This document shows, in pieces, positions 52,515-55,571 of a stretch of DNA of 64,000 nucleotides (position 1 is the stretch's first letter; each line of letters starts with the position of its first letter). This stretch comes from an uncultured Gammaproteobacteria bacterium. GTDB taxonomy: Bacteria > Patescibacteriota > Microgenomatia > UBA10105 > UBA927. The notes below the pieces were generated by a model that was not told the origin of the DNA, did no database searches, and saw nothing but the letters and a program-made list of their open reading frames with translations. A program made the translations under genes and the position numbers. The stretch lies in the NCBI GenBank assembly GCA_964629685.1, contig CAZVTT010000001.1:176627-240626 (forward strand). Reading direction: 5' to 3'.

Positions 52515-55500
52515 ATGTCAGCCGAAACGATCCGCTACGGTGAAAGTGACGCTACACGCAGGGAATCTCCCTTTGCTGCGTTTGCCCGTGCCCTAAAAGC
52601 TGGTGTACAGCAAATGATTGAGCGGATGCGTCCTCCTGCAGATCCGCGCATGGAAGATCGGAATAAATTCCGCTCCGAGGCTAATGACCGGATTTTTAAA
52701 GATGCGGCTACCGTAGCACAACGCGAGGCCGCCGACGCCCGTGCTCAAAATAAGGATATCTACCAAACTAAAACCGGTTGGCTGGGTGATCAGGTTCGGC
52801 CGGATATTCCGCCTCAAAATAAAAGTCGTCAGGAATTCGTGCAGACTGTCGTAACGGCTTCTTCATCAGAGCAGGAAAGCGCCCATTTTCTGTTGCAGGA
52901 AGGCATGCGGCTAAATGCCCGTACCAAGTGGGAAAATACCGCTACCGGTAACAATCTGAGCGGTGTTGAAAAGAAACAGACGAAAAGAACACTGGAAGAA
53001 ACATACGAGCGGATTCACCGATTACGTCAGGAAATGGGGAAAAAAGGCGAGAAATTTGATATAGAAGATAAACTGGTCCGGGAAGCTTTGGGGTTAGACG
53101 CCAGAACTGCAGTAGAAGGACTTACCCTGCAGGATGATGCCGTAGACTTAGTGCCGGAAGTACAGAACGAATTGCAGTCCTTTCAGGAGGTGGTCGTGGA
53201 TGACTTCGGTGGGTATCCGCCCATGGAAGTCGTTGATGACGAATTGGCGCTGCTGCGGGATATGGCCCGTGATCCCCGTTACAATAACCCCGATGCACAA
53301 GTAGCAATCCGTATTGCCCGCAGGCGTCTGGCACAACTCCGCAATGACGTAGAGGAGCATCAACCCGGAGGTATTGCCTTTCGGGGCCGTCCGGCGGAAT
53401 CAGGAACGACCCGGCCAAATGGACCCGGAGAATATCGCCGCGGCGGCAGAGTAAATCTGTCCAGCGAGCCGCTTTCACCGGAAACGGCAGCCTTTGCGGA
53501 AGAACTGGAAGCGTTGGGGAACGTAGACGGTTCGGAAGCCCAAAAGTGGATATTACGAAATATCGGTCCGGATGCGCCAATTTCTGAAGCCGAAAGAACT
53601 ACCCGCCGGGAACTGTTAAAAATGAAAATTACGGAGAAGGTGCGGTATCAGTTGAGTATTTTGGAAAGTAAAAGCTCTACCTGGCGCGAAGACATGACTA
53701 TGCCTGGTACGGAAGAAGGTACGTTAAACAGGTGGCTAAATTTGGGTACGGCCATACGGGAAGTTAATCCGGAAACGGGTAAACTCAGTAACGATTTCTT
53801 TAAACGCCTGCAATACGAAGTCCGGGGTCGGCATTGGCTGCATGGGGTAAATATCGCTATTGCCACCGGAGCGTCACCTACGGATATTAAGAAATTTTTG
53901 GAACAAATGCAGGACTTTATGGATATGTCTTACCATGAAGGCATTGCCCAAATACCGGGTGTAAACAAAGCGTTTCAGTTGCTTGAACAAAACGGTCGTG
54001 ACCTGGTGCGCAATGAACATAATCCCGAACGGCTTGAAGCCATTAGGGAGGCTATGCTGCAGGGATTGCGGGATGACCCGGATCAGTTATTTAATGCCGA
54101 CGGTACTGCAAACATAGAATTGCACCCGGAAATGGCGGGTCTTACGGATGAACAGGTGTTGGAAGTAGCCCGGCGGATGTTTAAGGAAACCGGTCGTGAC
54201 GCCTGGTATTACCGCGACTGGATTCAAAGTGATGGTGTGATTCAGTATGAACGAGATCCCCATGGCAATATGACTGCAAAAATAAGTGAAGATGCACCTC
54301 TTGCCTGGGACGGATTGCGCATGGCGTATGCCTGGGAGGCCATGTGGACGTTCTTTAACATTGGCGGTACTATGACCGGTGCTGAGGCCAGCGTGAAATT
54401 TGCACCGGTGAATGCAATCGGATTTGGTATAGGTGCTCCGCAACAGCATCATATAGAAGGTGAAAAAATGACTATCGGTAAAGGGGTGGGAGCAGAAGTC
54501 CGTGCAGCATTACATGCACATGGCTTCAGTACGAATATTTGTGACGTGTTTTCCCGCCGGAAAAATATGATTGCGGAAGCGTGGATTACCAGGTATTCTA
54601 CGCACTTAGATGAAATTCAGGGTCTAAGTGAATCGGAACGTGCCGAATTGGAATGGTTGGCACCGTCATGGGAACAGGGTTCTGCGCGGGGACAAAAAGA
54701 ACTGGAACATTCCAAAGATACAGCTACTGCTGAGCGGGCGAAACGTAAAGTATTTAAAGCCGCCATGATTGAACGGTTTACGGACAAAAACGGTTTACCC
54801 ATGTATGACACAAGTATTCATGACGTCGAGGCGGATATAGCCAAGGTTGCAGATGCCGCCACCCGCGCTCGGCTCACGAAAATGCTGGCGAGGGCAAAAG
54901 AAGCTGTGGAAACCAAGCGGAATGGTTCATTGGAAGAAATGGATGGATTTTTTAAAGATTTAAGCAAATTTGATGTCAGTGATATTCCGTTTACCTATAT
55001 CCGCCGTAAACAGGAAAACTTCCGCGGCAACACGCGGGATCATGCGGCCGCCTTGGGTGTGGTAGACGCCGTTACCAAATTTATTGGTGATCCGAATATA
55101 GATGCCTTACAGGCTATCCGGTATCAGTTGGCTATCGGGTATAGCGGGAAAGAAGCCATTCAGGCTAAGATTATTACGCCCGTGTGGTATGGTTTTGAGG
55201 AGGTGCACAAGGTAAATACTCCGCTTGGTAAAGAATACGGAATAATGAAGAGTCTTTTCCCAAGATTCTTTAAGAGTAAGTACGCCCGTATTCACGATGT
55301 AAATTCATTATCCGAACATGATCTGGAACGGCTATTGGATTGGCAGGTGGCTGTCGGAAACATGTCTCATGAACTACGGATTGCCGTTTTGGGTGGCGGA
55401 AATGATTTCCTACATCGGTGGCGTGGTAGACTTAAGTTGTATCTCGGGAAAAATCTAGATCCTATGATTTTCTGGGAAGTTGGTATTCTTTTGTTAATGG

Positions 55501-55571
55501 CAGAACTTCAGAAAATGGAAAAGGAAATGGGCGCCGGTGGCAGCAGTGGCGGTCATGGTCACGGACATTAA
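52515..55571 (+). CDS. large (1018 aa) hydrophilic orphan protein with a Gly/His-rich C-terminal tail; candidate secreted substrate or cargo of the adjacent T4SS-like system
   Basis: Long ORF with clearly higher GC than neighbouring genes. It is strongly charged, has no transmembrane helices or recognisable domain, and ends ...GAGGSSGGHGHGH. Confidence 0.55.
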   Translation: MSAETIRYGESDATRRESPFAAFARALKAGVQQMIERMRPPADPRMEDRNKFRSEANDRIFKDAATVAQREAADARAQNKDIYQTKTGWLGDQVRPDIPPQNKSRQEFVQTVVTASSSEQESAHFLLQEGMRLNARTKWENTATGNNLSGVEKKQTKRTLEETYERIHRLRQEMGKKGEKFDIEDKLVREALGLDARTAVEGLTLQDDAVDLVPEVQNELQSFQEVVVDDFGGYPPMEVVDDELALLRDMARDPRYNNPDAQVAIRIARRRLAQLRNDVEEHQPGGIAFRGRPAESGTTRPNGPGEYRRGGRVNLSSEPLSPETAAFAEELEALGNVDGSEAQKWILRNIGPDAPISEAERTTRRELLKMKITEKVRYQLSILESKSSTWREDMTMPGTEEGTLNRWLNLGTAIREVNPETGKLSNDFFKRLQYEVRGRHWLHGVNIAIATGASPTDIKKFLEQMQDFMDMSYHEGIAQIPGVNKAFQLLEQNGRDLVRNEHNPERLEAIREAMLQGLRDDPDQLFNADGTANIELHPEMAGLTDEQVLEVARRMFKETGRDAWYYRDWIQSDGVIQYERDPHGNMTAKISEDAPLAWDGLRMAYAWEAMWTFFNIGGTMTGAEASVKFAPVNAIGFGIGAPQQHHIEGEKMTIGKGVGAEVRAALHAHGFSTNICDVFSRRKNMIAEAWITRYSTHLDEIQGLSESERAELEWLAPSWEQGSARGQKELEHSKDTATAERAKRKVFKAAMIERFTDKNGLPMYDTSIHDVEADIAKVADAATRARLTKMLARAKEAVETKRNGSLEEMDGFFKDLSKFDVSDIPFTYIRRKQENFRGNTRDHAAALGVVDAVTKFIGDPNIDALQAIRYQLAIGYSGKEAIQAKIITPVWYGFEEVHKVNTPLGKEYGIMKSLFPRFFKSKYARIHDVNSLSEHDLERLLDWQVAVGNMSHELRIAVLGGGNDFLHRWRGRLKLYLGKNLDPMIFWEVGILLLMAELQKMEKEMGAGGSSGGHGHGH

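Follow-up and report, generated by a model that had tools for sequence, protein, structure and literature searches.

A large helical protein of an unannotated superfamily, encoded beside a VirB6-like gene in a type IV secretion locus of Patescibacteria

The window analysed here, a stretch of 64,000 nucleotides of contig CAZVTT010000001.1 (assembly GCA_964629685.1, positions 176,627 to 240,626), contains at 52515-55571 of the forward strand a gene with an ATG start for a 1018-residue, all-α protein without a signal peptide, hereafter the target. As judged by sequence comparison, the target is a member of a large, fast-diverging and unannotated superfamily of Microgenomatia-type Patescibacteria. 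According to Pfam and NCBIfam assignments, its gene has on either side one half of a type IV secretion system (T4SS) locus of Gram-positive type (MPF_FATA-like), a position that a sequence-only reading of the window, made without database searches, had recognised correctly. The left half (41306-48640, reverse strand) encodes a PrgI-like protein (VirB3; 46982-48640), a TrsD-like protein (46249-46941), a VirB4 of the CD1110 family (44192-46246) and an M23 peptidase (41306-44179). On the forward strand follows the gene of the type IV coupling protein (T4CP; 48826-51153), a VirD4/TrwB-like ATPase identified by the Pfam families TrwB_AAD_bind, DUF87 and TraG-D_C, which is the first gene of an apparent T4CP-nadD-nadE-target operon with overlapping or closely spaced genes. 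The nadD and nadE genes (51150-52465, forward strand; Pfam CTP_transf_like and NAD_synthase) stand between the T4CP gene and the target. To the right, and convergent to the target, lies the gene of a 492-aa polytopic membrane protein (55670-57148, reverse strand), identified as a likely divergent VirB6 by an AlphaFold2 (AF2) model, Foldseek and synteny, and beyond it six T4SS_pilin (VirB2-like) genes (57207-59775, reverse strand; PF18895), which are co-directional with the VirB6-like gene and kept in relatives.

The target is hydrophilic (grand average of hydropathy (GRAVY) −0.62, isoelectric point 5.8, 115 kDa), has one Cys in total, and matched no family in profile hidden Markov model (HMM) scans of Pfam, NCBIfam, PHROGs and PADLOC; the earlier description of a very hydrophilic protein with no recognisable domain is therefore borne out. 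When 14 and 40 superfamily members were scanned one by one, no family was common to more than one of them. The AF2 model of the target, built from a 14-sequence alignment, has a predicted local distance difference test score (pLDDT) of 73.4 and a predicted template modelling score (pTM) of 0.62, and is nearly all α-helical, with two small hairpin regions and with disorder at residues 1-20, 38-53, 284-322, 638-651 and 803-811 and in a C-terminal Gly/His tail. Foldseek comparison of this model with the PDB gave nothing significant (best E 0.2, TM ~0.1), the weak list consisting mostly of α-solenoids such as karyopherins and adaptins, and PDB sequence and profile searches were empty. The structure-based check that the sequence-only reading had recommended thus returned no significant fold, and no housekeeping-enzyme fold was detected.

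The helical N-terminal third (residues 1-376; 52515-53642) is variable, being 36% identical to the homologue P0003 and having no block conserved family-wide. It includes a disordered Gly/Pro/Arg-rich linker (residues ~284-322, 53364-53480; pLDDT <50 at 284-314 and 317-319), which is of variable length in the family and carries an insertion in P0003. The conservation profile and the invariant columns define a core block A (residues ~377-700, 53643-54614; pLDDT 80-93) with the motifs GRxWLH, GASPxD, ETGRDA, NAPLxWDxxRL, GVGAEV and YSRRK. A second variable linker (residues ~701-810, 54615-54944), which is 45% identical to P0003 and has large insertions in some homologues, separates it from core block B (residues ~811-982, 54945-55460), defined from the family alignment and bearing the motif RLQENxRGNxRD. 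In the family alignment itself the two conserved stretches run from about residue 430 to 690 and from about residue 810 to 960. The clade-specific motifs (GRxWLH, ETGRDA, YSRRK and RGNxRDH) fade in the wider superfamily, and G659 and D842 are the only invariant residues in an alignment of 40 diverse members. A HEPN-like Rx5H motif (RGNTRDH) was considered in the target and rejected; its His is replaced in 4 of the 14 close members, and the wider family does not have the motif.

A motif check found no Walker A, HExxH or CxxC motif in the target, and no P-loop family match was obtained that would relate it to the T4SS ATPases VirB4, VirB11 or VirD4. As there is no conserved catalytic constellation and neither Walker A nor HExxH, the protein is probably structural rather than enzymatic. 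Nor does it have the five or more transmembrane helices of a VirB6 or extended VirB6, its single hydrophobic segment lying below threshold. These data also bear on a reading as a highly divergent relaxase or DNA-processing protein coupled to the T4CP, the 'missing relaxase' of Patescibacteria T4SSs. In its favour are the location of the gene downstream of the T4CP, the size and cytoplasmic nature of the protein and the many Arg residues conserved in the close clade; however, the 40 members gave no match to a relaxase, Rep or nuclease family, there is no conserved Tyr, HUH motif or His triad, the N-terminal region, in which relaxases have their catalytic domain, is the least conserved part, and the all-α model, with G659 and D842 as its sole invariant positions, lacks an HUH or PD-(D/E)xK α/β core. 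We regard this explanation as very improbable.

To characterise the neighbour of the target, we modelled the 492-aa membrane protein from a 78-sequence alignment (pLDDT 76.7). Its homologues form at least 310 clusters at 90% identity, every one annotated as 'hypothetical' and none with a Pfam domain. The top eight Foldseek matches in the PDB were all TrwI/VirB6 chains of the R388 T4SS (probability 0.75-1.00, E 0.02-0.27, target-normalised TM-score 0.39-0.47), and since these top matches are TrwI/VirB6 only, we read the protein as VirB6. VirB6 has been described as 'scarce' in Microgenomatia, which was ascribed to extreme divergence (PMC12102498), and on the strength of the predicted fold the 492-aa family is likely to be the missing divergent VirB6 of this group.

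A word-indexed search of 5.8 billion proteins retrieved only the target itself and two relatives (71% and 52% identity), while HMMER, run exhaustively with a profile against 1.84 billion cluster representatives, gave 15 clusters, nearly all of 950-1065 aa. A 14-sequence profile passed through a word prefilter, which limits its reach, gave only the 3 close proteins, and a first pattern scan of GTDB found no match. In every retrieved context, down to 21-25% identity, the target gene is convergent with the gene of a ~490-aa membrane protein, and wherever the contigs of relatives extend far enough one or more pilin genes lie beyond the latter. In most contexts nadD-nadE stand upstream of the target orthologue, preceded by the T4CP gene where the contig reaches. 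In locus L007, HEPN/nucleotidyltransferase pairs take the place of the upstream genes, with the membrane-protein and pilin side kept. Distant relatives have insertions of toxin-antitoxin and Fic genes within the T4SS locus (HEPN/NTase pairs, Fic, BrnT/CopG; 6485-9986 of L007, 6779-7651 and 14662-15208 of L009), which flank the target-VirB6 pair and never separate its two genes.

We also performed the reverse test, in which an alignment of the membrane protein from eight loci was used for a scan of metagenome contigs, finding at least 475 relatives and retrieving 80 loci. Counting the 55 metagenomic loci with at least 1600 bp past the stop codon of the membrane gene, some of which duplicate each other, a convergent open reading frame (ORF) of at least 450 aa lies beside the membrane gene in 53. 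The gap between the two genes ranges from −3 to 221 bp (median 13 bp), and those partners that are full-length measure 571-1578 aa, with a median of 1190 aa. Only some of the 53 partners match the HMM of the close family, and an iterative HMM built on fast MAFFT alignments stalled at 19 matches; we therefore used an all-against-all phmmer graph, in which a single component contains the target family and 40 of the 53 partners, connected through near full-length links with E from 1e-80 to 1e-270. These strong links indicate that the target family is far larger than the 15 clusters suggest, and the partners missed by the close-member profile are explained by its fast divergence. The window protein belongs to this main sequence-linked component and has the features by which we define the superfamily: a length of 570-1578 aa, a gene convergent to a VirB6-like gene, an all-α structure, and a C-terminal hydrophobic segment with a short charged tail. 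The gene upstream of the partner encodes NadE in 8 cases, NadD in 5, PrgI in 2, T4CP in 1 and an unknown protein in 24, so that the constant features are only the adjacency to the VirB6 side and the placement between two T4SS operons.

Conserved gene order could also have been inherited by a lineage-specific cytoplasmic or membrane-peripheral protein that has nothing to do with secretion, for example an envelope or division scaffold. Housekeeping genes (nadD, nadE, and those for a sigma factor, Yip1 and the mevalonate pathway) are likewise syntenic with T4SS genes, and the target has shown no T4SS-specific domain or fold. What makes this explanation distinctly unlikely in our view is that the genes upstream have been rearranged, dropped or exchanged (for toxin-antitoxin modules in L007 and L009, with nadD/nadE or T4CP absent from the upstream flank in other loci), whereas the VirB6-partner pair stays convergent over the 53 loci at its short median distance, with the target gene always between two T4SS operons.

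The strongest hydrophobic feature of the target, which the sequence-only reading did not mention, is a C-terminal helix (residues 983-1004, DPMIFWEVGILLLMAELQKMEKE; 55461-55526), where the Kyte-Doolittle (KD) hydrophobicity of the protein peaks. Its hydrophobic stretch (residues ~984-996) lies shortly ahead of the tail, and the AF2 helix (983-1006) has a pLDDT of ~57-66; it is a candidate membrane or VirB6 tether. According to the ORF translation, the protein ends in GAGGSSGGHGHGH (that is, EKEMGAGGSSGGHGHGH), which confirms the Gly/His tail noted earlier for the 1018-aa ORF. This tail, MGAGGSSGGHGHGH, together with the stop codon (55527-55571), is disordered in the AF2 model and is conserved in P0002 and P0003; within the close clade it is found only in the three closest relatives and P0004.

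The C-terminal module is the one feature common to the whole superfamily, including clusters without a sequence link. It consists of one hydrophobic segment, 13-22 residues long, whose end lies ~12 residues (median) from the C-terminus, and of a short Glu/Lys-rich tail, which in many cases has a run of Gly and a His as its last residue (for example GGGGGH, GGGGGGGGAHH, SGGKSH, EGGHH, KRH and KKH). A terminal His occurs in 21 of 63 unique superfamily members, compared with 19 of 427 ORFs that were taken from these loci as background (Fisher p = 1.6e-10, for sequences that are not phylogenetically independent, the trait being scattered over many subclades). As the Gly run and terminal His recur across the superfamily, the tail of the window protein appears to be meaningful, a local version of a recurrent trait. 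Taking a KD value of at least 1.6 in a 19-residue window (KD19) as the transmembrane threshold, the C-terminal segment passes in 24 of 49 members of the wider superfamily. A signal-peptide-like N-terminus is present in 1 of 53 members and another hydrophobic segment in 1 of 63, and the sequence pattern of the superfamily suggests the architecture of a tail-anchored protein. The target itself has the position and uniqueness of segment expected of a tail-anchored protein, with a hydrophobicity below the threshold. It bears no sign of a Sec-dependent adhesin or of an LPXTG, PEP-CTERM or GlyGly-CTERM sorting signal; the tails of the superfamily are acidic or mixed, not basic, and no NCBIfam sorting domain matched the target. 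An adhesin-like role, one of the earlier suggestions, is thus unlikely, given the lack of a signal peptide and a hydrophobic segment that is present only at the C-terminus.

No gene of the T4SS locus diverges faster than the target, as seen from locus-wide identities with L002 and L009. Against L002, the values are 89% for VirB4, 93% for TrsD, 88% for T4CP (93% in L001), 67% for the PrgI-like protein, 69% for the VirB6-like protein, 70-87% for the pilins and 52% for the target; against L009 they are 82% for VirB4, 73% for T4CP, 41% for the VirB6-like protein and 27%, over a partial match, for the target. The divergence is concentrated in the N-terminal third, since residues 377-1018 are 64% identical to P0003 and so diverge at about the rate of the PrgI-like protein, the VirB6-like protein and NadE (67-69%). 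The M23 peptidase (41306-44179) is a second fast-evolving large protein of the locus, with ~400 N-terminal residues that are 45% identical to the L002 orthologue, compared with 89% for VirB4.

Rapid divergence is the first argument for what we see as the main rival, which we consider unlikely but worth serious attention: that the target is a T4SS substrate, an effector recognised through its C-terminus (the hydrophobic helix, the Glu/Lys-rich stretch and the Gly-His end), delivered to the host bacterium and possibly tail-anchored there. The hypervariable N-terminal third, whose 36% identity compares with 88-93% for the ATPases, would then reflect an arms race with hosts. The gene lies in an apparent T4CP operon, which is where conjugative systems place their substrate, the relaxase; the protein has no signal peptide; and the C-terminal module is shared by the whole superfamily, T4SS signals being typically C-terminal. 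Reviews have also speculated on effector delivery by the Patescibacteria T4SS (PMC11665869). On the other side, effector repertoires normally vary, whereas the target is single-copy within the window and holds a fixed position and a roughly fixed size in 53 of 55 loci; its constant neighbour is VirB6 and not T4CP, several loci having no adjacent T4CP; and it has a well-conserved core of 640 residues. Moreover, it ends in a hydrophobic helix, and hydrophobic transmembrane segments generally hinder T4SS export.

We prefer, tentatively, to read the target as a C-terminally membrane-tethered cytoplasmic accessory subunit of the T4SS, located at or beside VirB6, which we consider quite possible. 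The protein, which lacks a signal peptide, would be made in the cytoplasm; it is built of irregular α-helical domains, hypervariable in the N-terminal third and conserved in the rest. Its C-terminal helix would hold it at the cytoplasmic membrane, either at the VirB6 channel subunit or close beside it, and the large helical body could sit at the machine's base, on the cytoplasmic side, as a platform or adaptor between the channel and the VirB4 and T4CP ATPases. This proposal is based on the strict synteny, which holds at 71%, 52% and 21-25% identity and in the reverse test (53 of 55 loci), and on the observation that upstream genes vary while only the VirB6 adjacency and the inter-operon placement are constant. 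It is further based on the VirB6 fold predicted for the neighbour, on the rarity of hydrophobic segments other than the C-terminal one, on the absence of a conserved catalytic set and on a core that diverges like envelope-exposed T4SS parts. The membrane tethering, the physical contact with VirB6 and the scaffold role are those parts of the proposal that we infer from these observations.

Several findings weigh against this accessory-subunit reading. The nadD, nadE and HMG-CoA reductase genes are also syntenic, adjacency being broadly conserved in these streamlined genomes, and so the target-VirB6 adjacency alone is no proof of a physical partnership. A cytoplasmic structural subunit would not usually diverge fastest in its locus, as the target does (52% identity, the ATPases having 88-93%, and at greater distance 27%, the ATPases having 73-82%), and Foldseek searches of the PDB revealed no fold similarity of the target to any known T4SS component. 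In the window's clade the C-terminal segment passes the KD19 threshold in a single member out of 14; in the window protein KD19 is 1.25, with a Glu within the hydrophobic stretch, and the stretch has only ~10-13 residues both there and in the close clade. True membrane insertion is therefore doubtful for the window protein, for which the sequence makes a peripheral or protein-embedded helix equally possible as a membrane-spanning one.

Extended VirB6 proteins are known from Rickettsia (RvhB6) and from the F plasmid (TraG). In Southlakia epibionticum (Saccharibacteria), the extensions of SEML1_0011 and SEML1_0013 are, like the target, a large α-helical hydrophilic mass associated with VirB6. 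These two proteins of ~1000-1090 aa belong to the essential T4SS cluster of that species and have C-terminal ARM-like helical domains, and SEML1_0013 has been annotated as TrbL/VirB6 by Foldseek (PMC10633639 supplement; PMC12857230). The target differs from them in being a separate polypeptide encoded on the opposite strand, without the VirB6 transmembrane bundle and with a hydrophobic segment only at its extreme C-terminus; the convergent orientation of the two genes argues against a simple gene fission. By analogy, the target would be comparable in function to the helical extensions, to which it is likened here by description rather than by comparison of sequences.

Secretion machines also contain tail-anchored inner-membrane subunits of the TssL/DotU-IcmH type, which share with the target a cytoplasmic N-terminal domain, a single hydrophobic segment ~10-25 residues from the C-terminus and the lack of a signal peptide. 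The target is ~4-6 times larger than these, has no sequence or fold similarity to them, and the segment in its clade is too short or weak for a canonical transmembrane helix. The adaptor or accessory proteins of T4CP, of the DotM, DotN and IcmS/W type in Dot/Icm systems, are of a cytoplasmic or membrane-tethered accessory type, as is proposed for the target; they are encoded together with the coupling ATPase and act at it, and in the window's clade the target shares an apparent operon with T4CP. They are not homologous to it, and in many loci of the superfamily the partner gene does not stand next to one for T4CP. With T4SS substrates (relaxases, VirB/D4 and Dot/Icm effectors) the target has in common its cytoplasmic synthesis, a gene near T4CP, a conserved Glu/Lys-rich C-terminal feature and rapid divergence. 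In contrast to such substrates it is ubiquitous, single-copy in the window and fixed next to virB6, has a C-terminal hydrophobic helix, and contains no known signal consensus or relaxase motif.

A literature search found no publication describing the target family, nor is it represented by any database model; it is an undescribed family within a system of known kind. A bolder proposal, which we judge improbable, is that the superfamily represents T4SS components of a new class, with a C-terminal module, likewise new, made of the hydrophobic helix, the Glu/Lys stretch, the Gly run and the terminal His. Such a component would be either the missing cytoplasmic gate or adaptor, or a giant tail-anchored protein handed to the host membrane; in both forms the His tail would serve as a recognition or metal-binding signal. 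The gate or adaptor form, if true, would turn a conjugation-type machine into an essential host-exploitation device of Patescibacteria.

Patescibacteria (the Candidate Phyla Radiation, CPR) make up a large share of bacterial diversity. Their T4SSs are described as chromosomal, essential in S. epibionticum (one species tested) and without a relaxase in most clusters, with unknown function and substrates (PMC12102498, PMC10633639, PMC11665869). The present analysis assigns an unannotated 492-aa family as the likely divergent VirB6 of Microgenomatia, identifies a giant, unannotated and fast-evolving helical protein as the nearly universal genetic partner of this VirB6-like gene, and defines a recurrent C-terminal module, so that a candidate new subunit, or a first substrate, provides a handle on the role of the machine. 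The link between the target and the T4SS is a bioinformatic association in uncultured organisms, and our functional statements draw on sequence, synteny and predicted structure.

The composition of the target bears on a further explanation, raised in the sequence-only reading, by which the gene is horizontally acquired cargo in the secretion locus. With a GC content of 0.492 the target does rank highest among the 55 ORFs measured, as had been noticed, but the excess over its neighbours (0.45-0.48) is small, the whole 40-64 kb stretch of the window has a GC of 0.45-0.49, and orthologues show no such excess. It is located at codon position 1 (GC1 0.598) and is accounted for by an amino-acid composition rich in Ala, Glu, Arg, Gly and Asp. 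At the third codon position (GC3), the target (0.466) is matched by nadE (0.475), the other neighbours having 0.44-0.46. The comparison of codon usage with the flanking genes, proposed earlier, gave a divided result, in that the scaled chi-square of synonymous codon use for the target (0.145-0.156) is somewhat above that of the other long locus genes (0.05-0.11), slightly high for the length of the gene, but within the interquartile range of the window (0.11-0.17). In orthologous loci the target gene is not GC-richer than its neighbours and its GC3 is often lower (0.533 compared with 0.67-0.73 for neighbours in L002, and 0.393 compared with 0.42-0.63 in L009). The target thus carries no compositional sign of foreign origin. 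Related loci hold no different cargo genes at this site, the target family being kept in every retrieved context; the orthologues occupy the same position down to 21% identity, their divergence tracks that of the neighbours, and the locus is chromosomal and close to the origin of replication (oriC), with no flanking mobile-element genes. The conserved synteny refutes horizontal cargo, which we find scarcely credible.

In the GC-richer relatives (L002, L006 and L009) the GC3 of the target orthologue trails that of the neighbours, opposite to the slight excess in the window; this lag may be due to weak codon selection or low expression. A scan for promoters and terminators gave a signal no better than in shuffled sequences, and no tRNA or Rfam elements were found in the 64-kb window.

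The dnaA (37612-39006) and dnaN (39181-40290) genes, both on the forward strand, adjoin the T4SS locus on its left side, and ~37-38 kb is where the cumulative GC skew is lowest; together these indicate that the T4SS locus is oriC-proximal and chromosomal. Patescibacteria T4SSs have likewise been described as chromosomal and near oriC (PMC12102498). The named homologues of the neighbouring genes come from metagenome-assembled genomes of Candidatus Gottesmanbacteria, Blackburnbacteria and the 'Microgenomates group', from which we infer a bacterium of Microgenomatia type as the source of the window.

The last two steps of NAD synthesis, nadD and nadE, are encoded within the T4SS locus with overlapping stop and start codons, a placement that is kept in close relatives and variable in the wider set; NAD salvage is possibly co-regulated with a secretion or uptake machine. 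In the P0003 lineage a conserved 83-aa ORF stands between nadE and the target (L002 9611-9862, L003 663-914, L004 1003-1254 and L005 528-779), which is absent from the window, where the gap between the two genes is 49 bp. Among the pilin ORFs, 58202-58636 and 58560-58976 (reverse strand) overlap by 77 nt as listed; the true start of the former is probably further downstream, as its L001 orthologue has 118 aa. At the far end of the pilin array, an ECF-type sigma-70 gene (59684-60313, forward strand) overlaps the first pilin ORF (59371-59775) and has the same position where the contigs of relatives reach it (L001, L006, L009 and the P0004 contig), making it a candidate regulator of the pilin/VirB6 operon.

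Directly downstream of the M23 peptidase gene, a 335-aa ORF (40294-41301, reverse strand) with no Pfam, NCBIfam or PADLOC match may be another uncharacterised gene of the T4SS operon. A weak tblastn similarity of this ORF to the target was dismissed as chance (hhalign probability 5.5%). The window has a step in base composition, with a GC of 0.34-0.41 over positions 1-30000 and of 0.42-0.50 over 30000-64000, and reaches its GC minimum (0.335-0.36) at 8-12 kb. Polysaccharide biosynthesis genes (Wzy_C, Polysacc_synt) are found at 31-34 kb, to the left of the T4SS locus; a variable glycan cluster is one possible explanation of the low-GC block.

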